A stretch of DNA of 64,000 nt. Source: Myxococcota bacterium. Its GTDB lineage: Bacteria > Myxococcota_A > UBA9160 > UBA4427. The stretch spans positions 2,974-66,973 of the forward strand of contig JBDNFB010000227.1 in NCBI GenBank assembly GCA_041690055.1, given 5' to 3'. The translations under genes were made by a program, and so were the position numbers. Below, one piece after another: positions 12,483 through 33,964 of this stretch; position 1 is the first letter of the stretch; each line of letters starts with the position of its first letter. Below the pieces are notes generated by a model. The model was not told where the DNA came from. It was given only the letters and a program-made list of their open reading frames with translations, and ran no database searches.

Positions 12483-14576
12483 ATGCTTGAACGCCGAAAG
12501 GAGCTCTTTGAGCGCGGCGGCCATCTATTCATGGTCGTGGCCGCGATCTTTGTCGGCCTGGCCGGCGCGATGGGTGCCGTGGTCTTCCGGCTGATGATTC
12601 GCCTTGTTCAGGGCTTCGCTTTCGAAGGCACGGAGGGCGTCGCCGCGGTCTTCGCGGAAGGGCTCGCCGCCGAAACCCATGACCCTCTCGAGGTCGCACG
12701 CACCCTCTCCTGGTATTGGCGCATCGCGATCCCCGCCGCGGGCGGCCTGTTGGTCGGTCCCCTGATCTATTTCTTCGCCCGAGAAGCCCGGGGCCACGGC
12801 GTTCCCGAAGTCATGAAGGCCATCGCGATCCGCGGGGGCGTGATTCGCGCCCGCATCGTCGGCGTCAAAGCCATCGCCTCCGCGATCTCGATCGGCACAG
12901 GCGGCTCGGTCGGCCGAGAAGGTCCGATCATCCAAATCGGCTCGGCCTTCGGTTCCACCCTCGGACAATGGCTCCACCTGAACACCGCCGGCGTCCGCAC
13001 CCTCGTCGCCTGCGGCGCCGCGGCCGGCATCTCCGCCACTTTTAACGCGCCGATCGCGGGTGCGATTTTCGCTGCTGAAATCATCGTCGGCGACTTCGCC
13101 GTCATGCAATTCACCCCGATCGTGATCAGCTCCGTCGTCGCCTCGGTCGTGACGCGATACGCGGTCGGCAATCATCCCGCGTTCATCGTCCCCGAATACG
13201 AAATCGTCAGCCCCTTCGAACTCCTGCCCTACATGATCGCCGGCATCGTCGCGGGACTCGTCGCGGTCGCCTTCATTCGCACCCTCAGCCTTTCCGAAGA
13301 TCTCTTCGCCAGGACGCCGCTCCCCGAATGGTCCCGCGCCGCGGTCGGCGGAGCGATGGTCGGGGTCATCGCCCTCTGGCTGCCGAACGTATACGGCGTC
13401 GGCTACACGACAATCGGCGGCGCGCTCGACGGCAGCTTGCCCCTCGCGTTGATGGCGATCCTCGTCCTCGCAAAAATTCTCGCGACTTCGATCACGATCG
13501 GTTCGGGCGGATCCGGTGGCGTCTTTGCGCCTTCGCTCTTCCTCGGCGCGATGGCGGGCGGTGTCGTCGGCACCCTCGTCGTAGACTATTTTCCCGGCGC
13601 AACGGGCAGCTCGGGCGCCTATGCCCTAGTGACGATGGGCGCCGTTGTCGCCGCCGCGACCCACGCGCCGATCTCCGCCATCATCATCATCTTCGAACTC
13701 ACGCAAACCATCGACATCATCCCGGCACTGATGACCGCCTGCGTGATCAGTACGCTCGTCTCGCAAATCCTGTATCGCGATTCCATTTACACAACGAAGC
13801 TTCGCCGCCAGGGCATAGATATCCACGAAGCCCTCGACCCGAATGTGCTGAAGGGTCTCTTTGTACGGGACGTGATGGTGCGCGATCCCGATGTAATTCC
13901 AGCCTCCGCGAATTTCCGAACCGTGCTCGATCTTGTGGTCACGAGCCCGCATAGCCAATTCTACGTCGAGAGCCCGAATGGTGATTTAATGGGCGCGATT
14001 TCGCTCGCCGAGCTTCGACGACTCATCTACGACCAAGACACGCTTCAGCATGTCGTCGTGGCGGGGGATCTCGTAGACATGAGTCATCCCACGATCACCG
14101 ATGAAGCAGACCTTTCGATCGTCATGCAAATTTTCAGCACGAGCGAAGTCGATGAGATCGCCGTCGTCGACGCCGACGATCGAAAACGTTTGGTGGGAAC
14201 CGTTCGCGAGAAGGACGTGATCGAAGCAAGCAATCGCGAGCAGAATCGACGCGACCTCGCCGGCGGTTTCCATACGGGCCTCGGCGCTGCGGGCGCGGGG
14301 CAAACGGTCGAGTTAGGCGACGGCTATCAGCTGCGCGAGATCATGGCGCCGCCGCATGTCACGGGCCGCACGCTTCGCCAGCTCACGCTCCGCGAACGCG
14401 TGGGCGTACAGGTGCTCCTGGTTCGGTCGAAGCACGCCGAAGGCGGATCGCGGTTACGCGTACCCCACGGCGAGGATGTGCTGGTCGAAGGCGATACCGT
14501 GATTGTGGCGGGCACGCGGGATGCGCTGGACATGCTCGATGCGCTGAGCCCTCAGCCGCCGCCGGCCGAGGCCTAG
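12483..14576 (+). CDS. ClC chloride channel/antiporter with a CBS pair and a C-terminal TrkA-C domain
   Basis: GHGVPEV, GREGP, FNAPIAG, GGSGGVFAP, SIYT; two CBS repeats; RCK-C-like tail. Confidence 0.92.
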   Translation: MLERRKELFERGGHLFMVVAAIFVGLAGAMGAVVFRLMIRLVQGFAFEGTEGVAAVFAEGLAAETHDPLEVARTLSWYWRIAIPAAGGLLVGPLIYFFAREARGHGVPEVMKAIAIRGGVIRARIVGVKAIASAISIGTGGSVGREGPIIQIGSAFGSTLGQWLHLNTAGVRTLVACGAAAGISATFNAPIAGAIFAAEIIVGDFAVMQFTPIVISSVVASVVTRYAVGNHPAFIVPEYEIVSPFELLPYMIAGIVAGLVAVAFIRTLSLSEDLFARTPLPEWSRAAVGGAMVGVIALWLPNVYGVGYTTIGGALDGSLPLALMAILVLAKILATSITIGSGGSGGVFAPSLFLGAMAGGVVGTLVVDYFPGATGSSGAYALVTMGAVVAAATHAPISAIIIIFELTQTIDIIPALMTACVISTLVSQILYRDSIYTTKLRRQGIDIHEALDPNVLKGLFVRDVMVRDPDVIPASANFRTVLDLVVTSPHSQFYVESPNGDLMGAISLAELRRLIYDQDTLQHVVVAGDLVDMSHPTITDEADLSIVMQIFSTSEVDEIAVVDADDRKRLVGTVREKDVIEASNREQNRRDLAGGFHTGLGAAGAGQTVELGDGYQLREIMAPPHVTGRTLRQLTLRERVGVQVLLVRSKHAEGGSRLRVPHGEDVLVEGDTVIVAGTRDALDMLDALSPQPPPAEA

Positions 14577-19663: not shown

Positions 19664-20239
19664 TTAGCCGAAGAGTTCGAGCTGAGAGGACGAACGAGGC
19701 TCGGCCTTCTTTTTGCGACGCTCCTTGGGCGTACGCAGCGTGCCTCTGCCCGCCTCGAACACCGGCAGTAACCGCTGAACGGGTCCCTCTTTTGCCTTCT
19801 TCGGCTCTCTCGTCTTCTTCGGCTCTCTCGTCTTCTTCGGCTCTCTCGTCTTCTTCGGCTCCCGCGCCTTATGCCTCGCCTTGTTCGGCTTGGCCTGCTG
19901 GGCGACTTCCTTCAGCGGCTTTTCAGCGGAAGCCGGAGGCCCCGGCCGGTAGATACCCTCTTGCCGGCACCATTCCAGAATCTGAGCGTAATATGCGCGG
20001 AAGCGCAGACCGTGATTGAAATGCTTGAGATGAGCGAGTTCGTGGCAGAGCGTGCTCACTAGGCTCGAGTACTTGAGCGGCTTGCCTGTCGTCACGTGCC
20101 GAAGCCGAAGCCGAATGGTGCCGTCGGAAAAACACACGCCGTACCGACTCTTGACGTTGGCGCGCTCAGGCTCAAGAACTCGGTAGAGGAGCCCGAATCG
20201 CGAACAAATCCGCTGCGCATCCCGCTCAAGGTGCGCCAT
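19664..20239 (-). CDS. YgjP/WLM-like zinc metallopeptidase-domain protein with a basic repeat tail
   Basis: SRYGVC...IRLRLR, LCHELAHLKHFNH..RF (HExxH). Confidence 0.8.
   Translation of the reverse strand: MAHLERDAQRICSRFGLLYRVLEPERANVKSRYGVCFSDGTIRLRLRHVTTGKPLKYSSLVSTLCHELAHLKHFNHGLRFRAYYAQILEWCRQEGIYRPGPPASAEKPLKEVAQQAKPNKARHKAREPKKTREPKKTREPKKTREPKKAKEGPVQRLLPVFEAGRGTLRTPKERRKKKAEPRSSSQLELFG
19796..19862. repeat. 18-bp tandem repeat (3.5 copies) encoding REPKKT
   Basis: cttcttcggctctctcgt repeated. Confidence 0.9.
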
Positions 20240-21029: not shown

Positions 21030-21622
21030 AGAGCACTGGTTTTCATTCTCTGCAATTTCGCCCATTTTCGAGATAAATCGCGATATATCGAGATTGCTTG
21101 AGATCCGGGTTTCGAAAACGTCGGTTCATTTCAGCACACTCGGCATTCAAGCAGTTCTTCGCAAGATCACCGAAGCCCCTTGATTCCCTTTGGAATTCCA
21201 AAGACAAACGCCGGTTAAATCCCGCTAGAAGGCAGTTTCGGGGGGTTTATCAAAAGTGTCACTTGATCGTCACGATCAAGAACGCACTTCGTTGCCTTCC
21301 CGTTGCACAAGTGGTTAACTCGGCCGTGTTCGGGAAGCACCTATTTTGAACCCATCGAGATCCGGCTGAATCACTTGAAATCGCCCCAAATCGGTCGCGT
21401 ACATCCAAGTGTTGAGGCATCTCCACCCCGCTCCGCAATGCCCTCGATTGATCGAAAATATAGATATCTAAGTCGATATCGATCGAATCGATTGAGTGTG
21501 TTGGCTGAGCGGATGCTTGAAATGGGTCCTTTCCGAAGCGCTGAACTGAGTTCTTCGCCTGCGGGCAACCAGCTTTCGTTTATCGCTTCGATCAACTTCA
21601 TAGCTTTCGTGGTTTCTGTCGA
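21030..21622. promoter_or_regulatory. Long, relatively AT-rich non-coding region upstream of the dnaA-like gene, with palindromes and phased repeats
   Basis: 10-bp phased tcgagat-like repeats at 21068-21107; perfect palindrome ctttggaattccaaag at 21188-21203; tagatatcta at 21461 and tcgatatcga at 21473. Confidence 0.55.
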
Positions 21623-23587
21623 ATGACCTTTTCGCCCAAGGTCTGGGGTGACGCTTTGCGCCGCCTTCAGAATGACATTCCCGACTTTGTATTCGATGCC
21701 TGGATTGCGCCGCTCCAGGTCAAGCTGGCAACGAATCGCATCGTGCTCGGCTGCCCGACGTCTTTTCATTGCGATCGCGTTCGCATGCATCACGCCGAAG
21801 CGATCAAGCAAAGCGTGCAAGAACTGACGGGAACCCGTCCGCAACTTGAGATCCTGCCCCTCTCGGAATTCGCCGCGGCCGCGGGCCTGACTTATGACAC
21901 GCTCAGCGGACACGCAGCCCAGCATCTGAACGAGGCAGCCGGACAAGAAGAAACCCTGCGAGAAGAGCTCCGGCAGCCACTCCGCGTCGCGTCCGGGGAA
22001 CACGTGCAGGCGCAGGCCCTGGCTGGCGGAGGCACGGGCAGCGCGCGCACCATGCCGCTCGCGCCTTCTGCCTTCGCATCCCCCTCTGCATCCCCCTCTG
22101 CATCCCCCTCTGCATCCCCCTCTGCATCTTCTTACGCGCCTTCGACCGCCGCGTTTTCATCGCAGTCTCCCGACTCGCCGCTCGCCTTTGCCTCTGCCTC
22201 GCTCTCCGCGCAGGAAAAAGCTGAGCGCGAAGCGAAGGGCCTGTATTCAGTGCCCTCATCCGTTTCCTCAACAATGCCCGCACAAAAGCCCTCTAAGGCG
22301 CGACGGGTCTCAGCAAGACCGGCAACCGCCAGCGTGGCCGGCAAGCGCGCGGGAGCCCCTTCCCGAACCGCTCACTCTGCCCCACGTACCCGTGAGGAAG
22401 ACCTCGCACTCTCGCTCGACGGCACGCCCGCTCAGGGCGAACTGCCCTTCAGCTTTGAGAGTTTCGTGGTCGGCCCCTGCAACTCGCTCGCTCGCGAAGC
22501 GGCGCTCGCTCTCGCCCGGCAGCGTCAGCGAAGCCTGAACCAGATTTATCTCGGCGGAGAAGCGGGCATGGGCAAGACCCACCTCGCTCGCGCCACCGCC
22601 ATCGAAGCGCGGCGACATCTCAATCTGAGCTCGTCGTTTTCGGGCGGCTCCTTTGCCCACACCAATGCCCGCGCCCATGCCAACGCGCGCGGTTCGGGCG
22701 GCGCACAGGGCGGCTCCGTCAGACCTGGCATCGTCTACACGTCAGCCGAGCAGTTCACAAGCGAGTTCGTCTCGGCCATGCGTCATGGTCGATCCGATGA
22801 GTTTAAGAAGCGATACCGAGGCCCCATAGGCCTCTTGATCGTCGAGGACGTGCAGTCCTTTCAGGGCCGCGCCAAGACTCAGCTTGAGCTGTTCAACACG
22901 ATCGAGCATGTGCTCGATGCCGGTGGTCGCGTCATGCTCACGGGCGATCGCTCGCCGCGTGATCTGGGCGCCCTTGATCCCCGCATGCGCGAACAGCTTG
23001 GCCGAGGCTTTGTCGCCGAACTCGAAGCCCCCGATGCGCTCGTGCGCCGACATCTTCTGCGCGCGAAAGCGGCGGCCGGCGGCGTTCACCTTCCCGACGA
23101 TTGCCTTGACCTCCTCGTCGAATCCACAAACGGCAGCGTTCGAGATATCGAAAGCGTGCTGATCCAGGTCGTCGCGACCTCCTCGCTCCTCGGTCGCGCG
23201 ATCGACCTCGACCTGACCCGCGAAGCCGTGGCGCTGAAATCCGGAGCCGGCTCGTCGCTCGCTCCGAAGACGATCGCCGTCAGCGAGATCGTCCGCATCG
23301 TCTCCGCTTTCTTCGGCAAGCGACCCGAGGCCCTCGCGTCGCGTTCCCGCCGGCGCGATGTACTCATCCCGCGGCAGCTCGCGATGTACCTCGCCCATCG
23401 ATACACGGACGCTTCGTTCACGGAAATCGGTAGAGGCCTCGGCCGTGATCACCCGGCCGTGCGCAACGCGATCCAGCGCATCGAGCGGCTTGTCCTCGAA
23501 AACGCTCCGCTTCGGTATCAGGTCGAAGCGCTCTCCGAGCGAATCGACCAGACGCTTAAGAACCAGGCCGCAGACAGCACGCGATAG
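21623..23587 (+). CDS. dnaA: DnaA-family protein (divergent paralog with a long linker)
   Basis: Domain I (FDAWIAPL), FESFVVGPCN, Walker A GEAGMGKTHL, YTSAEQF, SVRDIES, domain IV PRQLAMYL...EIGR.LGRDH. No dnaN, recF or gyrB nearby. Confidence 0.85.
   Translation: MTFSPKVWGDALRRLQNDIPDFVFDAWIAPLQVKLATNRIVLGCPTSFHCDRVRMHHAEAIKQSVQELTGTRPQLEILPLSEFAAAAGLTYDTLSGHAAQHLNEAAGQEETLREELRQPLRVASGEHVQAQALAGGGTGSARTMPLAPSAFASPSASPSASPSASPSASSYAPSTAAFSSQSPDSPLAFASASLSAQEKAEREAKGLYSVPSSVSSTMPAQKPSKARRVSARPATASVAGKRAGAPSRTAHSAPRTREEDLALSLDGTPAQGELPFSFESFVVGPCNSLAREAALALARQRQRSLNQIYLGGEAGMGKTHLARATAIEARRHLNLSSSFSGGSFAHTNARAHANARGSGGAQGGSVRPGIVYTSAEQFTSEFVSAMRHGRSDEFKKRYRGPIGLLIVEDVQSFQGRAKTQLELFNTIEHVLDAGGRVMLTGDRSPRDLGALDPRMREQLGRGFVAELEAPDALVRRHLLRAKAAAGGVHLPDDCLDLLVESTNGSVRDIESVLIQVVATSSLLGRAIDLDLTREAVALKSGAGSSLAPKTIAVSEIVRIVSAFFGKRPEALASRSRRRDVLIPRQLAMYLAHRYTDASFTEIGRGLGRDHPAVRNAIQRIERLVLENAPLRYQVEALSERIDQTLKNQAADSTR
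22076..22128 (+). repeat. 12-bp tandem repeat x4 (ASPS) in the DnaA linker
   Basis: gcatccccctct x4. Confidence 0.9.
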
Positions 23588-23695: not shown

Positions 23696-24955
23696 CTAAA
23701 CCACCGGAAGCGCAGCAGTCTCCGGCTGCGATTCGCGCGCCTTCTCCAACGATGTTCGCCAACGCGCCGGTCCCGATAGATCCACCACTGCCTCGGGTTC
23801 GAGGGAAGGCGGATCGAGCGCGGGGTCTTCGAATCGCTGCACAGTTTTGTAGAGCGTCGTCCGCTCCACGGGCACGCGGCCGAGTTCGCGAATCAGGCGG
23901 CGGAACTCTTCGGGCGGCGTATTCTCGCCATGGTCCGCGCCAGACTCGCGACTGATCGATTCCTCCATCAGTGTGCCGCCGAAATCATTCGCACCCGCAC
24001 TCAGCGCCATCTGACCCAGCTTATGTCCCATCTTGACCCACGAGACCTGGATATTCGTAAACCAGGGCCGCAAGAAGAGACGCGACACCGCGATGATCCG
24101 CAGATCCTCTTCCATCGAAGGGCCGGGCCTTGAGCCAAGCAGGTTGTAGAGCAGATTCCGCTCGTGGATAAAGCCAAGCGGCACGAATTCGGTGAAGCCG
24201 CCGGTCTCTTTTTGGATCTCGCGCAAGAGGTCGAGATGGCCCGCAATATGATGTGGCTTCTCGATATGACCGTACATGAGCGTCGAGGTAGACCGCAGGC
24301 CGATGCCATGCGCCGCCTTGATGATCTCGACCCAGCGATCGGTCTTCAGCTTGTTAGGCGAAAGGATGTCGCGGATCTCGTCGTCAAGAATCTCGGCCGC
24401 CGTTCCAGGCATGGTTCCGAGTCCCGCGTCGACGAGCCATTGCAGATAGTCCGAGAGCTCCATCCCGCTCTTTTTATGCGCGAAATCCATCTCTTCGGGC
24501 GAATAGGCGTGGATATGAAGGTCTGGATACTCGGCCTTTACCGCTTTGAGAATATCGCGGTAATGCTCGTGGTTTTTGTTGGGATGGATCCCGCCCTGGA
24601 TGCAGACTTCCGTGGCGCCTCGCTCAATGGCGTTCTGACATTTTTCGAGGATCTCTTCGTGGCTGCGGTCGAAGGCTTCTTCTTTGTCGTCCTTGTGCCG
24701 GGCGAAGCCGCAGAACGAACAACCGACATAACACACGTTCGTGAAGTTGATATTCCGACAAACGACGTAGGTCACGTCATCGCCGCAGTCTCGCTTCCGA
24801 GCGAGGTCGGCTGCAGCAATCAGAGCGTGGAAGTCGAGCCCTTGAACGGTAAGAAGCCGTTCGGCGTCCTTCGCCGAAAGCTCTTTGCCATCAAGCGCAC
24901 CTTCAAGAAGGCTGCGCACATCACTCGAAACAGCAGCGGTAAGTTGTTCAAACAT
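23696..24955 (-). CDS. cofH: FO synthase subunit CofH (radical SAM)
   Basis: VTYVVCRNINFTNVCYVGCSFC, EVCIQGGIHP, PGTAAEILDD, NIQVSWVK.G, GANDFGGTLMEESISR; adjacent to cofG. Confidence 0.9.
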   Translation of the reverse strand: MFEQLTAAVSSDVRSLLEGALDGKELSAKDAERLLTVQGLDFHALIAAADLARKRDCGDDVTYVVCRNINFTNVCYVGCSFCGFARHKDDKEEAFDRSHEEILEKCQNAIERGATEVCIQGGIHPNKNHEHYRDILKAVKAEYPDLHIHAYSPEEMDFAHKKSGMELSDYLQWLVDAGLGTMPGTAAEILDDEIRDILSPNKLKTDRWVEIIKAAHGIGLRSTSTLMYGHIEKPHHIAGHLDLLREIQKETGGFTEFVPLGFIHERNLLYNLLGSRPGPSMEEDLRIIAVSRLFLRPWFTNIQVSWVKMGHKLGQMALSAGANDFGGTLMEESISRESGADHGENTPPEEFRRLIRELGRVPVERTTLYKTVQRFEDPALDPPSLEPEAVVDLSGPARWRTSLEKARESQPETAALPVV

Positions 24956-24956
24956 C

Positions 24957-26348
24957 TCAAGCGGCCTCCTCGTCGGACTGGTTGTTCTTCCGCTGCGCGT
25001 AGCCCTCGTCGTTGGCGTATTTCGGCAGCAGTGCCCGCATCTGCGGGTCAAAGAATTCGGGACGTTCGAGGATCCAGTCCGGATAGACGGGACCTCGTTC
25101 AAAAAGTTCGAAGCCGGCGGCCTCAGTATCCTCGCGCAACTGGCGCAAAGCAGGCCAGGGCGCTTCGGGATTGATAAAATCGACGGTGATCGGCGAAACG
25201 CCGCCCCAGTCATCCACGCCCGCCTTCAGCAGACGCGGGAGCATGTCGGCTCCAAGGTTCGGCGGCGCCTGGACATGCACTTCGCGGGGCAAGATCAGCC
25301 GCGCAAGCGCGACCCAACCCACCACCTGGTCATCTTTGAGGGGCGAAGCTGCGCGCATCTTCGTGCCCGGCTTGGGATGGAAAGGCTGGATGATCGCTTC
25401 CTGGATATGGCCGTAGCGGAGCGCAAGATCGCGGATCACCCAGAGCGTATCGACGCGCTCCGCATTGTTCTCGCCGATCCCGAGCAGCATGCCGCTGGTG
25501 AACGGAATCTTCAGCTCGCCCGCCTCTTCATGCATTTTGATACGCGTCGCAGGCTCTTTATCCGGCGCGTGAAAATGCGGCATCCCCTTCTCACGCAAGC
25601 GCCTACTCGTAGTCTCGAGCATCAGCCCCATCGAGGCATTATACGGCCGCAGCCGCGCCATCTCTTCTTTCGTGAGGATGCCCGCGTTCGTATGCGGAAG
25701 CATGCCCTTCTCGATCGTCTTCTTGCAGGCCTCCACAATCAGATCCGTCGTACTTGTTAGGCCACGTTCCGTCAGCATCTCGCGGTAGCTGCCATAAGCC
25801 ACCTCAGGCTTATCGCCGAGGCACATCAAGGCCTCCACGCATCCCGTCGCGACACCGCCGCGAACGACCTCTGCCACTTCCTCAATGCTGTAGGTATGTG
25901 CTTCCGCGGAATCGGGCTGTTTCGCAAACGTGCAATAGGTGCAGCGATTGCGGCAGAGATTCGTCAGCGGGATAAAAATATTTCGTGAGACCGTCACGCG
26001 TTCGCCGGTCTGCGCGACTTTGATTGCGCGCGCGCCGCGGCAGAGCGCGTCGAGGATTTCCGCGTCCGCGAAATGTTCGGAAAGGATCTCGGCCTGCTCG
26101 CGTGAGAGCAACGCGACGCCTTGGACTACGTCTTCTACCCAGGCCTCCACCTCAGAAACGGCGGGGGGAACACCAGGGCGAGCCAACGCGTCGCGAGCGC
26201 CGAGCGGGGCGCCGGCTTTGCGGGTCGAGTTCTCTGGTTCTGGGTTTTGCGCGTTCGGCAAAAGGGGGACTCCGAGGGATCCGGTCGAGCTGATCAGAAT
26301 AGGGCGGGCGCACTCTAGAGCATCACACAGGCGCGCTGCCTTCCGCAA
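24957..26348 (-). CDS. cofG: FO synthase subunit CofG (radical SAM); start uncertain (~26150-26350)
   Basis: SRNIFIPLTNLCRNRCTYC, PHTNAG, SMGLMLE, PDKEP, FTSG.L.GIGE, QAPPNL, DDWGGVSP.T.DFINPE.PWP. Confidence 0.92.
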   Translation of the reverse strand: MRKAARLCDALECARPILISSTGSLGVPLLPNAQNPEPENSTRKAGAPLGARDALARPGVPPAVSEVEAWVEDVVQGVALLSREQAEILSEHFADAEILDALCRGARAIKVAQTGERVTVSRNIFIPLTNLCRNRCTYCTFAKQPDSAEAHTYSIEEVAEVVRGGVATGCVEALMCLGDKPEVAYGSYREMLTERGLTSTTDLIVEACKKTIEKGMLPHTNAGILTKEEMARLRPYNASMGLMLETTSRRLREKGMPHFHAPDKEPATRIKMHEEAGELKIPFTSGMLLGIGENNAERVDTLWVIRDLALRYGHIQEAIIQPFHPKPGTKMRAASPLKDDQVVGWVALARLILPREVHVQAPPNLGADMLPRLLKAGVDDWGGVSPITVDFINPEAPWPALRQLREDTEAAGFELFERGPVYPDWILERPEFFDPQMRALLPKYANDEGYAQRKNNQSDEEAA

Positions 26349-26427
26349 TCAAGACGGATTCGGCGACCCAGAGGCCCACGACCGTATCATAGCGAAGCCC
26401 GTAACTGTCCGGAATGCTGAGAGATTG

Positions 26428-27468
26428 CTACCCCTCTAGACGGTCGGGGTTCCCCCCGGGCGATACGAGTTCCCCCTTGGCCGGAGCTCCGTCCTCTTCT
26501 CGTGGCTGCGTCCGCCAGCGACGATGGGTCCAGATCCACTGACTCGGCTCCGCCCGAATCGCCGCTTCGATGGCCTCCGTGACGCGCTGCACATTGGCGC
26601 GAATCGCTTGCGCGGGATCGGCGGCGTTCGAAACGAGCGGAATCGCAGGACCGATCTCGACGCGATGCCCCTGGCCGTTCGCGCCGCGCCGGATGAAGGC
26701 GGGCACGATCGGAACGTTCCGGGCCATCGCCAATTCGACCGGCCCCGAGCGCGTACTCGCCAGACGCCCGAAGAACGAAACGAACACTCCCTCTTCGCGC
26801 TTCGCGTCTTGGTCGAGCAGCGTAATCACTTTCCTCCCCGACTCGAGCGCGCGCACAACCGGCAAACCCGCATGCCCCATCCGAATCTGCTGCACCGAAG
26901 AAGCGTCGCCCGCGCCCTTTTCCCCGATCGTGCGCCCTCGAAGATCCAAGAGGACCTGGTCGAGAGCGGGCTCTCGGAGACCGCGGTAGACGACGGAAAC
27001 CGGAATGCCCAGGGCCGCGACTTTCGCACAAGCCAGTTCCCAGTTGCCAAGATGTGCCGTCACGACCAAAACGCCACCGCGTTCGGTCTGCGCTTCCGCC
27101 GCGCGGAGATGTTCGAGTCCTTCTACTTCGACTTGATCCAGCAAGGCGGCTGCCCTTGCGCCTCTCAAGGCGAGCAGTTCGACGAGTCCCTGCGCGAGAT
27201 GTTCGAAGACACCGCGCGTCCAAGCCTCATGATCGCGCGGGGAATGCGTCGGAAACGCGGTCGCCAGCTGCGCTCGAACCCGTCCGGTGCGCGGCGCGGA
27301 GAGCGCAGCCCACCCGCGCCCGAACCCGCGCGCGAGTGCCGCGCTCGCCGAAAGCGGAATTCGCTCCACGATCCAGGTCAGCCCATCGATCAAGCCAGAA
27401 AGAAGTCGGCTCCGCAGCGAACGCTCGGACGCTTCGCGACCCGTCGACCCTGCGCCTGGAGCGCCCAC
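26428..27468 (-). CDS. Lysophospholipid / lipid A late acyltransferase (LpxL/HtrB family)
   Basis: TAHLGNWE, LDQD, V.FFG, PSQWIWTHRRW; starts 14 nt after the carboxylase stop. Confidence 0.88.
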   Translation of the reverse strand: MGAPGAGSTGREASERSLRSRLLSGLIDGLTWIVERIPLSASAALARGFGRGWAALSAPRTGRVRAQLATAFPTHSPRDHEAWTRGVFEHLAQGLVELLALRGARAAALLDQVEVEGLEHLRAAEAQTERGGVLVVTAHLGNWELACAKVAALGIPVSVVYRGLREPALDQVLLDLRGRTIGEKGAGDASSVQQIRMGHAGLPVVRALESGRKVITLLDQDAKREEGVFVSFFGRLASTRSGPVELAMARNVPIVPAFIRRGANGQGHRVEIGPAIPLVSNAADPAQAIRANVQRVTEAIEAAIRAEPSQWIWTHRRWRTQPREEDGAPAKGELVSPGGNPDRLEG

Positions 27469-27482
27469 GCTCCAGCCCCTCC

Positions 27483-30400
27483 TCAGCGACCTGAGAGAGA
27501 GGCTTCGAGCGAATGAATCACGGCCGCACGCAAATCCGATGGATCGAGAATCTCGGACAGCGATCCCACTTCCCGCGCGCGATTGACGTTATGCACGGCA
27601 TCAAACTCGGCCGCCACCGAAGCCTGCTTTTCGAGCGTGACTTCTGTCAGCACGTCTTCGAGCTCCGCGCGATGCTCTTCCGTCGGATGTCGCCGGGCCT
27701 GCTCGGTCTTGTCCTTCACCCGAGGATCATCGAGCGCCTGCGCCCGCACCTCGCGACTGAACACCACCGCCGCCGCCGGCCCGCCGCCGATCACCGAAGC
27801 GTAGGAACCCGAAAGGGCGACCGCCTTCATTTCATCGTTTAGCTCCTGGGAGAAGACCACGTAGGCCCCGCCGTGGTAGCGAGAGACGACCGCGAAATAG
27901 ATCGGCCCGGCAAAGTTCACGACCGCGCGCGCAATCTCCGCGCCGTTTTCAAGCTGAATCTTGCGCAGCGATTCCGGCGAGCCATCAAAGCCCGACAAGT
28001 TCGCGAGCACGACAACTGGCCGATTTCCGCTCGCCGAATTAATCGCGCGAGCGACTTTCTTCGAGGACTGCGGAAAGAGCGTGCCGCCGTTCCAGGACTC
28101 GGGCCCGTCCGCCGGGTGGTAGCCGTCGCGGGGCACGTTGCGGCTCTCGATGCCGATAAGCAAAACCGGCTGACCGCCGACATGCGCATCCCAGACAATC
28201 GCTGTCTCGGCACCTACCCAGGCATTCCATCGTTCAAGGTACCCGCCGTCCTGGTCAACGAGCGCGTTCATCACTGCGCGCATAGCGAAAGGCCGTTTGC
28301 GTCCCGGATTCGTTTCATCGTCGAAGAGTTCACCGACCGTCTTGAGACCATCCGCATCGGTCTCACCAATCGTCATCTCGCCAATCGAGCGCGCCCGTGG
28401 ATCTTCAGTCGCAAATGCCCGCGGCCCTGCCTCGCCCGGCACCACATACGTGAAGCGGTAGTGCTCGTACAAGATGCGGTAGGCATCAGCGAGGTTCCGC
28501 GCGTAGTACTGCGCCTCACCATTCGGCCCCATGATCCGCTCAAAGCCGCCGATGGCGATTTCGTCTTCTGCCGAAACAGCGCCCGAAGCTTCGAGCGCCG
28601 CGCGTCCAGTCAGGACCATCGACGCGTTCTGCGTCATGATCAGGACACCACGCGTATGCATGAGCATTGTCGAAAGAGCGTCGAAGTAACTTTGCGCTCC
28701 GACGTTGACGCCTTGAACGATGATATGAACGATGCCGCCGGTCTGTGTAAACGTTACTATGCGTCGGACGACCCGAGCCGTCGCATCGAGGTTCTCGGTG
28801 CCGCTATCCATCGCGATCTTCGCACCCGAAGAAACGGGCACCCACTCGAGCGGCACGCCTTCTTTCTCGGCGAGATCGAAAGCGGCCACAAGTCGATCGC
28901 ATTCCGGCGCCGACAAAGCGCCCATGCCCATCGTCGGATCTGACAGCACGAGTACGCGCTGCATGCCTTCCGGGACTTTTTCAGTCGGCGTACGAATCAG
29001 GCCAAACACAACCGCCGAAGTGTTCTGGCCTGGCGGCCTCGACGCAACGCTCATGGCGCGCGGCGTCTTGCTTTCCGGATCCAAGTCGAACTCTTCGAAA
29101 GAGCCTTCTGTGCGCTCTCCTTCCGAGGTTTCCCCCGTCAGCATCTTCACGATCTCATACGGATAGATCAGACGACGTCGGCGTGCGGCAACAACCTTCC
29201 GCTCGTATTCCTGCGCGGGGGCAAGAGGCGCGTGATGCGGATTTCGCCAAGTCGTCTCGAGCTGCTCGCCGGTATCTGAAATCACGAGTTCGCAGGCTTC
29301 CGCCGGTTCGTCTGGATTCTCGCGATCGAGTCGATTGAGTTTGACGATCACTTTCTCGAGGCCTAGATGACGGGTCGCGGGGGCAAGCCTGCGTGCCACG
29401 TCACTCGCTACTTCCGCGTCCACAAAAACCTCAGGCGCTACGAAGATCGCGATGCGATTCCATTGCAGCCGCCTTCGCGGATCGTTGGTTTGCAAGATCG
29501 TCCGAAGGCGGCGGGCCGCGCGGTTGAAGACGCGCTCGAAGGTCCCGAGATGATGAGAGAGCTCGCGACCCGGCTCTGGCGATCGATCGCGCGCATCAGC
29601 CAACACGAAAATGCGTTCGTCGCCGGGCGCATTGCGAGCGCGACCGTGGAAGGCGTAGATGCCTTCCTCGGACTGCAGGCGATCAAGATCGAAAGCCGCA
29701 TAGCGATCGAGCGCGATGCGTCCCGCGGTTTCCGGATGCAGATCATGATGTTCGTAGGCTCGCTCGATCTGTCCTTCGCGACGCACGAGCGTCCGGTAGA
29801 CGTCTCCTTCGCCGTCAGAGGTGAGCAATCCGACCGTGATCCGCCAACCGAAATCGACATCGGCATAAGCGGTTTCGATTTCGCCAAGCGTCTCGTCCCA
29901 GTCAAGACCCCCAGCGCGCTCCTCTTCGCTCGTCGCAGGAATCAAAAACTCAAGCGCTGTAATGGGCGTTCCCGGATCGCGCTCAAGGAGCGTTGCGGCG
30001 CCGCGCATAAGCCGGTCCATCCAAACCCCGAGTTCCGAGGCCTCTCCCGTCGCGGCCAACACAACACCCTTGCCTCGGTACTCCACGCAATGAATCGGTT
30101 CGTCATCCACACGAACTGCCCGATAGGCCTCAGGCGTACTCGGCGCATATCGTCTCTGAACATGGGCAGCGAGAGCAATCGCACGCCGATTCGAATCTTC
30201 TCCGCCGATCCAACGGCCCACCCGCTCAAAGACCATACGCGGCGAAGAAGCGACCTCGAGCAGCACGTCACCGGGCGGCGCCACAGCGTCCATCTCGGCT
30301 ACGGCCAACCATTCTTCGACCGTGCTCGAGGAACGCTTCGCGCGTTCTTCGATGCCCGGCTCCTGGAAAATGACGTACGAAGCTTCAAGCGCCGCATCCG

Positions 30401-33125
30401 CAATCGTATCCGTCACCTGAGGACGCATGCGTGCGATCCGGTTGAGGGCGCCGGCCAGCCGAGCATCATCGCCCATGAATATGCCGGTCTGCGCGAGTCG
30501 GGTAATCCGTCGCAGAACACCCAAGATCAAGGAAAGCCGCAGGCTCCGTCCCGGCTGACAAGCCAGAATCCGGAGCAGCGCCCGCCGCAGTGCATCCGAA
30601 GGCGAAAGATCCGTAATGCCGTAATGCGAGAGCGCCGCGCGAACCAAATCGAGGTACTCCTCGTCGATTCCCGCCCCCTCCGCTTCCACGCGCCGGATAT
30701 ACATACCGAGCCGAGCGTGATTCGAAGGTCCAGACTGGCCGGAAATCGAAGCGCTCGGTGCGCGAACGGAGAGGAGCTCTACGTCCGCGAAGGTTTCCAC
30801 TTCGTGCCGGATTTCAGCGAGTGCCCGCGTAAAGCTCTCCGAGAGATCCTCGGGCAGCGGCGCCTCAAGGAACGAAGCAAGCGCGTCCGCCCGATCGGGG
30901 TTCGCGTCGTAGCCGAGAAGCACCCGGCGAATCTCTTCGCGGGCAGCATCGATGGCGAGACGTCGATCACCCAGATCCGCATGATCCGCCGCGAGCAGAG
31001 CCGGCTCACCCAGCGGCCGCTCCTCGTTCGGTGAAAAGAGGAGCGCAATCGGATCCACTTGCTCCGGCAACCGCAGGCGCGTTCGAACCACGCTATCCGC
31101 GGCCTCTTCGCTCGACTCCTCGATCACAAGAATCATATCGCCGGCGGCAACCTGTTGACCCTTTTGGGCGATAACTTCCTTGATCGTCCCGCCCACGGGC
31201 GCCTGGAAGCCGATCTCCATTTTCATCGCTTCGAGCAGTCCCAGCGACTGCCCCGCCGTGACCGTATCGCCCTCGGCAACGTGAATCGCGACCACAACAG
31301 CGGGCGTGCTCGATCGGACCTGTCCCGCAGTTTGCGAGCTAAATCGGAGCGGATGGCCGTCGACTTCGAGACGCAAGCCGCGCTCGTTCGCGTCGTACTG
31401 AATCCGGCGCACGCGATCGTCGATGATCAAACGCGCGGCATGGTCGCCCTCTTCTCGCATCGTGGCGCCCACGGCGACACCTTCGAGATGTACGCGGTAG
31501 CGCCAGCTACCGATCGCGTAGACCTTGAGTCGATAACTCTCCGCCCCGAACGAGAGGTCGATTTGTTGACCTTTCGACGAGGGCGGTCGATCGCCGCTGG
31601 TATCCCCTCCGAAGATGCCTGTGCGCAGAGTCGCCCGGCTTCGCTGATAGGAGAGAATCGCCGCCGCGACGAGCGCGTCTCGTGCGAGCTCCGGATGGGT
31701 ATCCACGATGCTTGCGCGTTCGGCACTCCAGAAATCAAGCCAGCGTGTATCGACGCCGCCTCTCCGAAAATCGTCGCTCGCCAGGATATCGAGCAGATAC
31801 CCCTTATTCGTCGCTCCGCCCTCCACAATGAGTTCCAGATCCCGAAGTGCAGACGCGAGACGCGCGATCACATCACTCCGCTTCTCACCGTAGGTAATGA
31901 CTTTGGCGATCAGGGAATCAAAATCGGAAGAAATCACGGTGTTCGTCGTGACGCCGGAGTCGACGCGGGTATGTGGGCCTAATGCCGGCTCGAAGAGTGC
32001 GATGCGGCCTGGCGAGGGCAGAAAGCCTTCGTCCGGATCTTCGGCACAGACACGCGCTTCCATTGCGAAGCCGCGTCGCTCTACGGGGATCTCCGCGATC
32101 GACTCACCGCGCGCGATCCGAATCTGGATCTCGACCAGGTCGACACCGGCGATCAGCTCCGTGATGCCGTGCTCAACCTGAAGTCGCGGATTGACCTCAA
32201 GGAAGAAAAAATCCTCGCCCTTGATCAAGAACTCGACCGTTCCGACGCCGTAGTAGCCCACATGGCTCACGAGCTGGACCGCGGAATCTTCAAGGCGCGA
32301 AAGCAGCTCGTCGGAAAGACCGGGCGGCGGCGCCTCTTCGAGCACTTTTTGATGCCTTCTCTGCACGGAGCAGTCGCGGCAACCAAAGGACCGGGCAAAG
32401 CCATGCTGATCGGCGGCGACCTGCACTTCAATGTGGCGACCGCCCTGGACCATGGCTTCAATAAAGAGCGAGCCGTTACCAAAAGCCGCCATCGCCTCGG
32501 ATTCGGCGGACCGGAAGGCCTCGGCGATTTCGTCGCGCTTCTCGACCATTCGGATGCCGCGACCACCGCCACCCGCTGTCGCCTTGATCACGACGGGAAA
32601 ACCAATGCGTTCGGCATGCGCGAGTGCGTCGCGCTCATCCCGCAGCGCGCCGCCACTCCAGTCCGTCACGGGCACACCCGCGCGCTGCGCGAGTTCTTTC
32701 GATGTGATCTTGTCACCAAGCTGCCGCATGGCATCAGCCGGCGGGCCAAGAAAGAGGATGCCCTCGGCGTTCAGCCGGTCCACGAAGACGGGATCTTCTG
32801 CAACGAATCCCCAACCCGGCCACACCGCATCTGCCTTCGCTTCACGGAGCGCCGCCAGGACGCCATCATGATCGAGATAGGCGGCCACGGCGCCGTTCTC
32901 CGCCGAGAGTTCGACGGCGCGGTCCGCTTGCCGCACGTAGGGTGTGTTGCGATCGGGTGCTGTGAATAGGGCCACGACCTCGAGGCCGCCCCCTTCTCTT
33001 TCGCGGAGGCTCTTCGCCGTGCGAAGGCATCGGACGCCGGCCTCTCCCCGATTCACAATCGCCAGCCGCTCGATGCGGCGTGATTCGATTTGTCCCGGTC
33101 CGTTCGTGTCGCGCTCGTCACTCAT
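27483..33125 (-). CDS. Single-chain multidomain acyl-CoA carboxylase (BC-BT-BCCP-central-CT), ~1880 aa
   Basis: BC: NRGE, WPGWGF, GGGGRG, RDCSVQRRHQK, EVNPRLQVEH. Biotin site EAMKME. ~600-aa central region. CT: SSGAKI, LANLSGFDG, GGAYVV. Confidence 0.92.
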   Translation of the reverse strand: MSDERDTNGPGQIESRRIERLAIVNRGEAGVRCLRTAKSLREREGGGLEVVALFTAPDRNTPYVRQADRAVELSAENGAVAAYLDHDGVLAALREAKADAVWPGWGFVAEDPVFVDRLNAEGILFLGPPADAMRQLGDKITSKELAQRAGVPVTDWSGGALRDERDALAHAERIGFPVVIKATAGGGGRGIRMVEKRDEIAEAFRSAESEAMAAFGNGSLFIEAMVQGGRHIEVQVAADQHGFARSFGCRDCSVQRRHQKVLEEAPPPGLSDELLSRLEDSAVQLVSHVGYYGVGTVEFLIKGEDFFFLEVNPRLQVEHGITELIAGVDLVEIQIRIARGESIAEIPVERRGFAMEARVCAEDPDEGFLPSPGRIALFEPALGPHTRVDSGVTTNTVISSDFDSLIAKVITYGEKRSDVIARLASALRDLELIVEGGATNKGYLLDILASDDFRRGGVDTRWLDFWSAERASIVDTHPELARDALVAAAILSYQRSRATLRTGIFGGDTSGDRPPSSKGQQIDLSFGAESYRLKVYAIGSWRYRVHLEGVAVGATMREEGDHAARLIIDDRVRRIQYDANERGLRLEVDGHPLRFSSQTAGQVRSSTPAVVVAIHVAEGDTVTAGQSLGLLEAMKMEIGFQAPVGGTIKEVIAQKGQQVAAGDMILVIEESSEEAADSVVRTRLRLPEQVDPIALLFSPNEERPLGEPALLAADHADLGDRRLAIDAAREEIRRVLLGYDANPDRADALASFLEAPLPEDLSESFTRALAEIRHEVETFADVELLSVRAPSASISGQSGPSNHARLGMYIRRVEAEGAGIDEEYLDLVRAALSHYGITDLSPSDALRRALLRILACQPGRSLRLSLILGVLRRITRLAQTGIFMGDDARLAGALNRIARMRPQVTDTIADAALEASYVIFQEPGIEERAKRSSSTVEEWLAVAEMDAVAPPGDVLLEVASSPRMVFERVGRWIGGEDSNRRAIALAAHVQRRYAPSTPEAYRAVRVDDEPIHCVEYRGKGVVLAATGEASELGVWMDRLMRGAATLLERDPGTPITALEFLIPATSEEERAGGLDWDETLGEIETAYADVDFGWRITVGLLTSDGEGDVYRTLVRREGQIERAYEHHDLHPETAGRIALDRYAAFDLDRLQSEEGIYAFHGRARNAPGDERIFVLADARDRSPEPGRELSHHLGTFERVFNRAARRLRTILQTNDPRRRLQWNRIAIFVAPEVFVDAEVASDVARRLAPATRHLGLEKVIVKLNRLDRENPDEPAEACELVISDTGEQLETTWRNPHHAPLAPAQEYERKVVAARRRRLIYPYEIVKMLTGETSEGERTEGSFEEFDLDPESKTPRAMSVASRPPGQNTSAVVFGLIRTPTEKVPEGMQRVLVLSDPTMGMGALSAPECDRLVAAFDLAEKEGVPLEWVPVSSGAKIAMDSGTENLDATARVVRRIVTFTQTGGIVHIIVQGVNVGAQSYFDALSTMLMHTRGVLIMTQNASMVLTGRAALEASGAVSAEDEIAIGGFERIMGPNGEAQYYARNLADAYRILYEHYRFTYVVPGEAGPRAFATEDPRARSIGEMTIGETDADGLKTVGELFDDETNPGRKRPFAMRAVMNALVDQDGGYLERWNAWVGAETAIVWDAHVGGQPVLLIGIESRNVPRDGYHPADGPESWNGGTLFPQSSKKVARAINSASGNRPVVVLANLSGFDGSPESLRKIQLENGAEIARAVVNFAGPIYFAVVSRYHGGAYVVFSQELNDEMKAVALSGSYASVIGGGPAAAVVFSREVRAQALDDPRVKDKTEQARRHPTEEHRAELEDVLTEVTLEKQASVAAEFDAVHNVNRAREVGSLSEILDPSDLRAAVIHSLEASLSGR

Positions 33126-33133
33126 AGCCAGGT

Positions 33134-33964
33134 CTACTCCGCCGCTGCTTTGGGGCTGACTGAATCCATCACGTGATCCGTCAAGATCATTTCGCTTCCC
33201 GCATTCGTTTCGCTTCTCATATCCGTTCCTGTTCTCACACCCGCTCCTCTTCTCACATCCAAAGTCGGCGTCATTGCGAAGGCAACGAAGCGACCGTGAT
33301 GCGATAAAGAAAGAGACAGAGAAGTACATCCACCGTCGAGCTCGACAGTCGGAATCTTCCCGCACCGACCAATCGAGAGTCGATCGACCTCGACTCCCAG
33401 GTTCCGCCCGATCTCGCGCACAGCAAGTATGCGCACCGCAACACTCGGATCGGTGGAGGCGGGGGCAGGGGCAGGGGCAGGGGCAGGGGCGAAGTTGAAA
33501 GAGACGGGCGACCGCTCCTCGACCGAAAAGACAAGCGCATCCCAGTCAGAATCCACAGGCAGCGCAATCACATGCACCGATTGCGCCGACTCGTAGCTTC
33601 GAATTTCGAGCTCCCGCGCGTGAGGGGCAGGCAGGACCATCCGCCCGCGGCGCTCCACCCAACTCGTTTGCGCGGAAATCGCTGAGGACGCCGAAGCATG
33701 TATCGACCCTGAGACCATTTCCGCTGGTTCGAAACGCGCGGTGAGCTGAATCGGAGAGAACACGAAATGCGGATCGAGCTGCCGGGCCAGCTTGTAGGCC
33801 GCTTCTTTCGCGCCCCAATGCGCCCATCGGCAGGCCAGTGACGCCGCATCGCGGGCAATCACGCGCCGCTCTTCGGCGGAGAAAACGCGTTCGTCAAAGC
33901 GCGGTCGAAAGGTCTCGGGACGCGCGTCGATATCTTCGAGGTCGATGACATCATTGCCGAGCAT
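33134..33964 (-). CDS. 4'-phosphopantetheinyl transferase
   Basis: GNDVIDL, WGAKEAAYK, SLSLSHHGRFVA. Confidence 0.9.
   Translation of the reverse strand: MLGNDVIDLEDIDARPETFRPRFDERVFSAEERRVIARDAASLACRWAHWGAKEAAYKLARQLDPHFVFSPIQLTARFEPAEMVSGSIHASASSAISAQTSWVERRGRMVLPAPHARELEIRSYESAQSVHVIALPVDSDWDALVFSVEERSPVSFNFAPAPAPAPAPASTDPSVAVRILAVREIGRNLGVEVDRLSIGRCGKIPTVELDGGCTSLSLSLSHHGRFVAFAMTPTLDVRRGAGVRTGTDMRSETNAGSEMILTDHVMDSVSPKAAAE

Follow-up and report, generated by a model that had tools for sequence, protein, structure and literature searches.

The stretch of DNA analysed here, called the window throughout, is 64,000 nt long and corresponds to positions 2974-66973 of contig C227 (177.6 kb) in the genome assembly of a Myxococcota bacterium (6.34 Mb in 266 contigs, 91.8% complete). 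It carries an open frame encoding a divergent DnaA, which we term ED-type for the acidic pair of its Walker B motif. The gene lies between a LON-domain gene and a radical-SAM gene, and neither dnaN, recF, gyrB nor rpmH was found adjacent to it among the neighbours read in the window. A preliminary description, made from the letters of this stretch, regarded it as an orphan DnaA paralog that had lost the arginine finger, had an altered DNA-recognition helix and was not the main initiator. Our comparisons point to a larger finding: judged by sequence, this is an order-wide sole DnaA without a canonical arginine finger, retained after the loss of an origin-linked dnaA.

The protein has all four DnaA domains, as read from Pfam matches and the translation (Table 1). 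The three Pfam matches score above their cut-offs, that to Bac_DnaA (PF00308) at 121.9 bits. The Bac_DnaA match is split, with its best stretch at residues 370-465, and the 38-aa insert after Walker A is passed over in all PDB and Pfam alignments; among the genomes compared by profile search, the match is split solely in those of the window's genus. The Ser/Ala/Pro-rich linker, with segments such as SPSASPSASPSASPSAS between residues ~80 and 270, varies in length among orthologs, whose frames span 464-685 aa. In an AlphaFold model of residues 270-650, built on an alignment with 40 orthologs (mean pLDDT 89.4), domain III matches that of B. subtilis DnaA (8bv3_A) with a TM score of 0.91 and an rmsd of 1.8 Å, and insert residues ~339-359 have pLDDT below 50. 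Two copies of residues 270-545 co-modelled with ATP and Mg scored 0.00 against a mark of 0.42, which is no evidence either way. Hda and HdaA share the DnaA-family AAA+ domain but lack domains I and IV, both of which are present here, and the Hda profile TIGR03420 gives 70.6 bits, under its cut-off of 194.8.

Table 1. Features of the ED-type dnaA and its immediate neighbours, in window positions
Feature	Positions	Strand	Evidence or remark
LON substrate-binding-domain-only protein, 225 aa	20352..21029	+	Pfam PF02190, 124 bits
dnaA upstream region, 593 bp, ~56% GC, TCGA-type repeats	21030..21622		Without TTGTCC-type box
dnaA, ED-type, 654 aa	21623..23587	+	Single DnaA-family gene detected in genome
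Domain I, DnaA_N, residues 6-66	21638..21820	+	Pfam PF11638, 37.6 bits; alignment to PDB 2e0g spans residues 6-75
Domain II, Ser/Ala/Pro-rich low-complexity linker, residues ~77-269	21851..22429	+	Translation; without family match
Walker A GEAGMGKT, residues 312-319	22556..22579	+	Lys318 invariant
Low-complexity insert after Walker A helix, residues 332-369	22616..22729	+	Genus-specific
Walker B acidic pair E408-D409, GAGGAC	22844..22849	+	ED versus DD of canonical DnaA
Box VII LDPRMREQLGRG, residues 451-462	22973..23008	+	R454 equivalent to E. coli R281; Q458 at finger position; R461 genus-specific
Sensor II Arg507, kept	23141..23143	+	Alignment
Domain IV helix-turn-helix, Bac_DnaA_C, residues 554-620	23282..23482	+	Pfam PF08299, 72.4 bits; aligned to 1J1V, 3PVP, 8BTG
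Recognition-helix signature GRDHPAVRNA	23441..23470	+	Within domain IV
Radical-SAM gene, CofH/MqnC-like, convergent downstream	23696..25213	-	Conserved neighbour

HMMER alignments to the solved DnaAs of B. subtilis (8BTG), T. maritima (2Z4R) and A. aeolicus (2HCB) are gap-free from residue 370 to about residue 530. They set PRMREQL of the window protein against DRLRSRF of B. subtilis and DRLVSRF of the other two, and place Gln458 (CAG, 22994-22996) at the arginine-finger position (E. coli R285, B. subtilis R264), where Arg is absent. Counted on the alignment, this position stands 16 residues from sensor I and 12 from the downstream PD, as in B. subtilis; because the spacing is equal and there is no indel, a neighbouring Arg cannot slide into the finger position. 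A sequencing error is excluded, since the same substitutions recur in more than 100 independent assemblies. Walker B reads LLIVEDVQ, its acidic pair kept as ED where the canonical motif is hhhhDD. The ED form is found in 35 of 37 orthologs from the order and in all 11 from the sister order, against DD in 24 of 24 DnaAs outside the class, and it also occurs in at least seven finger-bearing DnaA representatives outside the clade. All 82 aligned DnaAs share the Walker A Lys and the residue that corresponds to the trio-binding Glu228. The sensor II arginine, which we take to be R334 in E. coli numbering, is R507 in GSVRDIES, aligned with SNIRELEG of B. subtilis, and is kept in 32 of the 37 order orthologs. 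In domain IV, GRDHPAVRNA departs from GRDHTTVLHA of E. coli (1J1V) by Thr to Pro, Thr to Ala and His to Asn, with the Asp-His and the PRQ arginine retained. The observations of the preliminary description thus stand: four domains, Gln at the finger, the Walker B and signature readings, a linker of ~200 aa, an insert (38 aa in length) and no origin genes on either side. Neither ED nor His-Pro is exclusive to this gene; the signature of T. maritima DnaA is RSHPVV.

The second line of evidence is copy number. A whole-genome profile search of the 91.8% complete assembly detected no second Bac_DnaA or Bac_DnaA_C gene, and the same Bac_DnaA search detected no Hda-like gene. One ortholog of the window protein is present in 30 of 31 relatives; the exception is an 83% complete genome for which the search was stricter than usual. 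The single-contig genomes G019 and G025 and the two-contig G029 give one Bac_DnaA match each, and single-contig G062 gives one Bac_DnaA and one Bac_DnaA_C match. In an order sample of 121 genomes, 115 match Bac_DnaA_C, 111 of them exactly once; the six without a match are 79-93% complete, and the second matches in the remaining four comprise two below cut-off, one of 35.9 bits and one in a frame of 191 aa at the end of a contig. At class level, each of 21 genomes sampled from the order has one Bac_DnaA gene, against two in every one of the 20 from the sister order. In the window's genome the assembly spans the classical slot between rpmH and dnaN, which holds no dnaA, and tblastn with 10 queries against 20 such spacers found no dnaA remnant (best E-value 0.012). 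As a separate observation, seven identical weak Bac_DnaA matches (27 bits, 282-aa frames) in genome G012, on contigs C4, C8, C15 and C18, suggest an insertion-element AAA+ helper gene present in several copies.

The gene is distant from the probable origin. GC skew is negative throughout the window, and the cumulative skew of the whole contig reaches its minimum at ~105 kb and then rises, in one clear switch. At the switch, dnaN-gyrB-gyrA face rpmH-rnpA-yidC across a 745-bp gap in which GC content falls to 0.48-0.50. In contig coordinates, dnaA occupies 24596-26557 and dnaN 109361-110479 (minus strand), which puts dnaA 82.8 kb from the skew switch and the rpmH-dnaN point. This arrangement is general in the genus: in 20 of 20 genomes rpmH and dnaN stand side by side in divergent orientation, separated by 449-745 bp that contain no dnaA, and in the seven members where dnaA and dnaN share a contig the distance between these two genes is 79-127 kb. 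In remoter members of the order the distance is 249 kb, 274 kb and, in G019, 1.8 Mb.

Alignment of the 230 nt directly 5' of dnaN revealed a conserved module of a box, trios and AT-rich DNA in all 20 genus genomes. In the window's genome it lies at ~12494-12550 of locus L053 and reads, toward dnaN, TTGTCCGGT, a 10-nt spacer, TCT CTA CTA CTA CTC TTT and ~22 nt of AT-rich sequence; on the other strand the trios are 3'-AGA GAT GAT GAT GAG AAA-5'. The 10-mer CTACTACTAC is exact in 11 of the 20 spacers, with near variants in the others, and occurs six times in the 6.3-Mb genome, once at the dnaN-proximal site. A comparable module, with CTA repeats and AT-rich DNA after TTTTGTCGG, TTCTGTCGC or similar, is recognisable in four of five remoter order members (G029 being unclear), and at the two sister-order loci examined it lies between dnaA2 and dnaN. 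A same-phylum relative with a canonical DnaA (L119) has TTATCCACATTATCCACA-GCCC-CTACTACTAC-GGTC-TTTATTTTAAAAAAAAG, the last part AT-rich, in the same orientation.

This arrangement can be compared with the basal unwinding system (BUS), which is defined by a DnaA box, a spacer with a length peak at 10-13 bp and at least three trios, 3'-GAT-5' being the commonest (PMC8287927, PMC10721633; these papers and PMC6727663 are cited here and below from excerpts). The stated criterion is at least three NAN trios within 16 bp of a DnaA box, beside AT-rich DNA (PMC8287927), and a BUS was reported in 1755 of 2070 predicted origins (PMC8287927, PMC10721633). In its trios, spacer and AT-rich stretch the putative dnaN-proximal module fits the published layout, and the part that differs is the box. 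The genus consensus beside the trios is TTGTCCGRT, which has TTGTCC in common with the GC-type box and continues with GRT rather than ACA; the canonical relative has TTATCCACA at this place. The changed box is accompanied by a recognition helix altered at three positions, and the two changes may be linked. Other sequences in the rpmH-dnaN spacers are also conserved. A block CGTGTTACTCTGCCGACAG lies at L053 ~12650-12690 (C227 ~110.65 kb), with its core CGTGTTAC present in 20 of 20 genus genomes, and a block containing TTGACA is conserved likewise; both are candidate sites for a promoter or a regulator.

The sister order (family code f13) indicates where the gene may have come from. Its paralog 1 has an ED Walker B, the finger Arg (16 of 16), the signature RDHTSV-YA and a DnaA_N domain, lies 38-93 kb from paralog 2 and shares neighbours with the window gene, namely a LON-domain gene upstream and a radical-SAM gene downstream. 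Paralog 2 occupies the classical slot, with yidC-yidD on one side and dnaA2-dnaN-gyrB in order, and has a DD Walker B and the signature RHHTTALHS; Pfam DnaA_N was not matched in the three paralog 2 proteins scanned. Among ten paralog 2 sequences, the R281-equivalent is Pro in eight, the finger is R in six, Q in two, S in one and A in one, and the sensor II Arg is kept in two. This second, highly divergent dnaA is found in the classical slot of all 20 sister-order genomes (loci L084-L093, for example L084:3878-5224 on the minus strand and L085:3714-5057 on the plus strand); of the two copies, the distal one is the better preserved.

In a quick IQ-TREE search (82 rows, 349 columns, LG+C20), support was 100 for paralog 1 with the window's order, 98 for the window's order alone and 100 for paralog 2 alone. 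The ED-type clade and paralog 2, which have long stems (1.22 and 1.64), fall within a clade (support 97) together with DnaAs from two further families in the phylum, in a three-way fork that the tree does not resolve. By its place in the tree and its neighbourhood, the window gene is an apparent ortholog of the distal, non-origin copy of the sister-order pair. We read this as an old dnaA duplication, followed by fast evolution of both copies and then by loss of the origin-linked copy in the window's order; a long-branch artefact or gene transfer could also account for the topology.

The finger residue itself varies across the order. The 37 distinct orthologs have Q in 22, R in eight, L, I and H in two each and T in one, giving 29 non-Arg residues, whereas Arg occupies the position in 40 of 40 DnaAs outside the class (30 of 30 from the rest of the phylum and 10 of 10 outgroup representatives) and in 11 of 11 sister-order paralog 1 proteins in the tree. 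The census of this position over DnaA clusters drew on the best 150 of 20,515 matches. On the gene tree, Arg and non-Arg interchange at least five times and the full set of states changes at least ten times, counts that have to be read with deep order nodes that are poorly resolved and with related sequences that are not independent. Closer to the window protein, the 120 nearest database clusters and the query gave 109 parsed proteins with Q in 98, L in six, I in five and R in none, the 12 of 121 that the box VII pattern did not parse being left out. A genus subclade (loci L011, L030, L031 and L032, in genomes G016, G006, G009 and G014) additionally has Thr for the sensor II Arg (SVTDLES, SVTEIES) and thus lacks both classical ATP-sensing arginines; in the order as a whole the sensor II Arg is lost in five of 37 orthologs.

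Taking these results together, we consider that the protein works as the only initiator and that its ATP-sensing interface has been rewired, in an ED-type DnaA descended from the distal duplicate, and we put the probability of this reading at about 0.7. The gene is most likely the chromosomal replication initiator because it encodes the lineage's only DnaA; the case rests on a single-copy, well-conserved, four-domain protein paired with a trio-type module at the skew switch. In the mechanism that we propose, DnaA would bind the dnaN-proximal box through the changed recognition helix DHPAVRNA, load onto the trios as an oligomer and open the AT-rich DNA. The nucleotide-binding residues are kept (Walker A Lys, the acidic Walker B pair and the sensor II Arg). 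Contact between protomers and any ATP sensing would rest on Gln458 with R454, R456 and R461 and on the wider AAA+ interface, and hydrolysis stimulated in trans is probably weak. Control of initiation may now act through the amount of protein or through other factors; as no Hda was detected and the hydrolysis apparatus is eroding, it probably rests on the level of DnaA.

Several observations weigh against this reading. None of the finger-to-Ala DnaA mutants from four species (B. subtilis, S. elongatus, H. pylori, D. radiodurans) succeeds in trio-dependent strand separation (PMC8287927, PMC10721633), and a finger-less protein on a trio-type origin is therefore unexpected. At the position equivalent to the trio-reading Asn187 the window protein has Ser. 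The DnaA equivalog profile TIGR00362 is the top NCBIfam match but, at 296 bits, falls under its cut-off of 343.9; a canonical DnaA from this phylum reaches 558, against 352 for paralog 1 of the sister order and 240-267 for paralog 2. The box TTGTCCGGT has four mismatches from TTATCCACA, whereas the limit used for a sole box is two (PMC8287927). In the 20 rpmH-dnaN spacers, single-copy conserved blocks were present but no repeated 8-10-mers, exact or with one mismatch, and no 600-bp stretch of the 177-kb contig holds more than one TTATCCACA or more than two TTGTCCACA at up to one mismatch. Over the whole contig, the counts at this threshold are nine and 17, neither of them clustered. The ~14-fold enrichment of YTGTCSR near dnaN is descriptive, as it was measured on the motif's own source sequences in related genomes. 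Finally, the genome assembly is incomplete (91.8%).

A precedent exists for initiation with a disabled finger. The lethality of E. coli DnaA(R285A) is suppressed by oriC-allADP, whose sites bind DnaA regardless of nucleotide (PMC6727663), and finger-free initiation is thus possible where the origin allows it. A stronger version of our reading holds that the entire order initiates with a DnaA that is truly finger-free, in some members also without sensor II, and still opens a trio origin, after the distal duplicate replaced the origin-linked dnaA. We regard this version as tentative and would put it at somewhat below even odds. For the interface, we considered three readings, and the one that we favour is an interface rebuilt around Gln458 and the remaining arginines, over a neighbouring arginine that serves as finger and over initiation independent of DnaA.

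Of these two alternatives, the neighbouring arginine is the better supported. Either R454, one helical turn before Gln458, or the genus-specific R461 could act as the finger, which would leave the ATP switch intact and make the change cosmetic. The distribution of arginines is suggestive: in the order, where the finger is mostly lost, 33 of 37 orthologs have Arg at the R281-equivalent, sister-order paralog 1 shows the opposite pattern (finger in 11 of 11, R281-equivalent in two of 11), and canonical DnaAs keep both in 24 of 24. In the AlphaFold model R454, R456 and Q458 share one short helix (residues 453-459). R461 occurs in every one of the 16 orthologs from the genus and in 93 of 109 parsed family-level proteins, yet in none of the 21 other orthologs of the order, finger-less ones included, and the model places it off that helix, in a Gly-Arg-Gly loop. 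B. subtilis also has equivalents of R281 and R283 in DRLRSRF, and the finger-to-Ala mutants of the four species are defective all the same (PMC8287927). Moreover, the genus loci L030 and L032, whose box VII is LDDALRAQVGRG, have neither the R281- nor the R285-equivalent. We give a substitute finger a probability clearly below even odds.

Replication of the order could instead be independent of DnaA, as reported for some cyanobacteria, with the protein surviving as a transcription factor. Some bacteria are known to initiate in this way (PMC8287927), and the range of finger residues (Q, H, T, L, I or R) with its repeated changes, the loss of the sensor II Arg in a minority of orthologs, the large and variable distance between dnaA and dnaN and the lack of a detected box array at the origin would all be understandable under such a regime. 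Set against this, dnaA is kept in nearly all of the order genomes sampled, almost always as one copy, and domain I, Walker A and the residues that contact single-stranded DNA are conserved. The contig has a single clear GC-skew switch, and trios, box and AT-rich DNA are conserved 5' of dnaN across the class, where loss would be expected if DnaA were dispensable (PMC8287927). This alternative is improbable.

That the protein is an accessory paralog (transcription factor or filament cap) working alongside a canonical initiator from another locus would agree with its separation from dnaN, rpmH and gyrB, with descent from the non-origin copy of a duplicated pair and with the capacity that a finger-less protein could in principle have to end a filament, but it is very improbable given that no second DnaA-family gene was found in the window's genome, the closed genomes of the order or 111 of its 121 sampled genomes, that the classical slot is empty and without a detectable remnant, and that the genome yielded no Hda-like match. 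Accordingly, the preliminary description's view of the gene as something other than the main initiator is not upheld; a capping or modulating role would need a partner initiator, of which the genome search found none, and the canonical dnaA-dnaN locus that might have been sought elsewhere is a slot that is assembled and lacks dnaA. Its term orphan paralog is apt in that the gene goes back to the distal copy of an old dnaA pair, both copies of which the sister order keeps, but not in the sense of a spare copy beside another initiator. Similarly, the gene is the sole dnaA, but it lies 83 kb from the skew origin rather than at it. The R-to-Q change holds in part, with Gln the majority state in the order and Arg in the eight orthologs counted above, and the proposed change of DNA specificity is plausible in view of the TTGTCCGRT box.

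The surroundings of the gene add a candidate partner. In genus, order and sister order alike, ED-type dnaA is preceded by the LON-domain gene (49 of 57 loci by tblastn), and on the basis of this conserved neighbourhood its product could be a regulator, adaptor or partner of DnaA. The region between the two genes is dense in TCGA-containing repeats (ATCGAGAT, GAATCGATT and TCGAAATCG-like). We considered the TCGAAATCG-like motif as a DnaA box and rejected it: at least three copies, at up to one mismatch, are present in eight of 16 upstream regions, yet the motif is equally dense in other intergenic regions of C227. Downstream, the radical-SAM gene overlaps a second one (24957-26348, minus strand) by 257 nt when the longest start codons are used, and its true start is probably later than listed; one of the pair has a CofH/MqnC C-terminal region. 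Elsewhere in the window, 27483-33365 (minus strand) is a single frame of 1960 aa in which a biotin carboxylase, a biotin-carrier domain and a carboxyltransferase are fused, and 19664-20239 (minus strand) encodes a small WLM/YgjP-like metallopeptidase-domain protein with KKTREP repeats at its C-terminus.

Among known systems, canonical DnaA (E. coli, B. subtilis; TIGR00362; 8BTG, 2HCB, 1J1V) resembles the window protein in its four domains, the fold of domain III, Walker A, sensor II and the PRQ arginine, as well as in its single copy per genome and a putative trio-type unwinding module beside dnaN. The window gene differs in the Gln finger, the ED Walker B, DHPAVRNA in place of DHTTVLHA, a profile score below the TIGR00362 cut-off, its position 83 kb from the origin and a trio-side box of TTGTCCGRT rather than TTATCCACA. 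Thermotoga maritima DnaA (2Z4R) has the His-Pro in its domain IV signature but keeps the finger and a DD Walker B; its binding site is a non-canonical 12-mer. DnaA2 of the sister order (L084-L093) shares class and phylum-level ancestry and an eroded box VII and sensor II, but differs in its DD Walker B, its HHTT signature, the absence of a DnaA_N match (three of three) and its rpmH/dnaA-dnaN slot, and it was not found in the window's order. A functional parallel is E. coli DnaA(R285A) on the synthetic oriC-allADP of Grimwade and Leonard, where initiation proceeds without a working finger at sites that need no ATP-specific cooperative binding; that system is an engineered mutant and origin with mistimed initiation (PMC6727663), whereas the state in the window's lineage is natural, order-wide and paired with a trio-type origin.

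The arginine finger of DnaA has been described as invariant, and its change abolishes origin opening in the species tested, namely B. subtilis, S. elongatus, H. pylori and D. radiodurans (PMC8287927) and E. coli with R285A (PMC6727663). Our literature searches, which covered sources outside subscription journals, returned no account of a finger-less DnaA or of DnaA paralogs in this lineage among the papers listed; the one on DnaA without its finger deals with engineered mutants. The finger position occurs naturally with Gln, His, Thr, Leu, Ile or Arg, a series suited to comparative biochemistry, and the lineage documents what appears to be a handover between initiators, in which duplication and loss of the origin-linked copy were followed by a change of box. 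It also amounts to a natural experiment on a disputed question, whether the ATP-dependent filament is mechanically needed for origin opening or serves timing only. Should the order prove truly finger-free, its members would have a natural initiator filament that no longer reads ATP in trans, and the ATP switch would be a dispensable regulatory layer rather than the opening mechanism itself.

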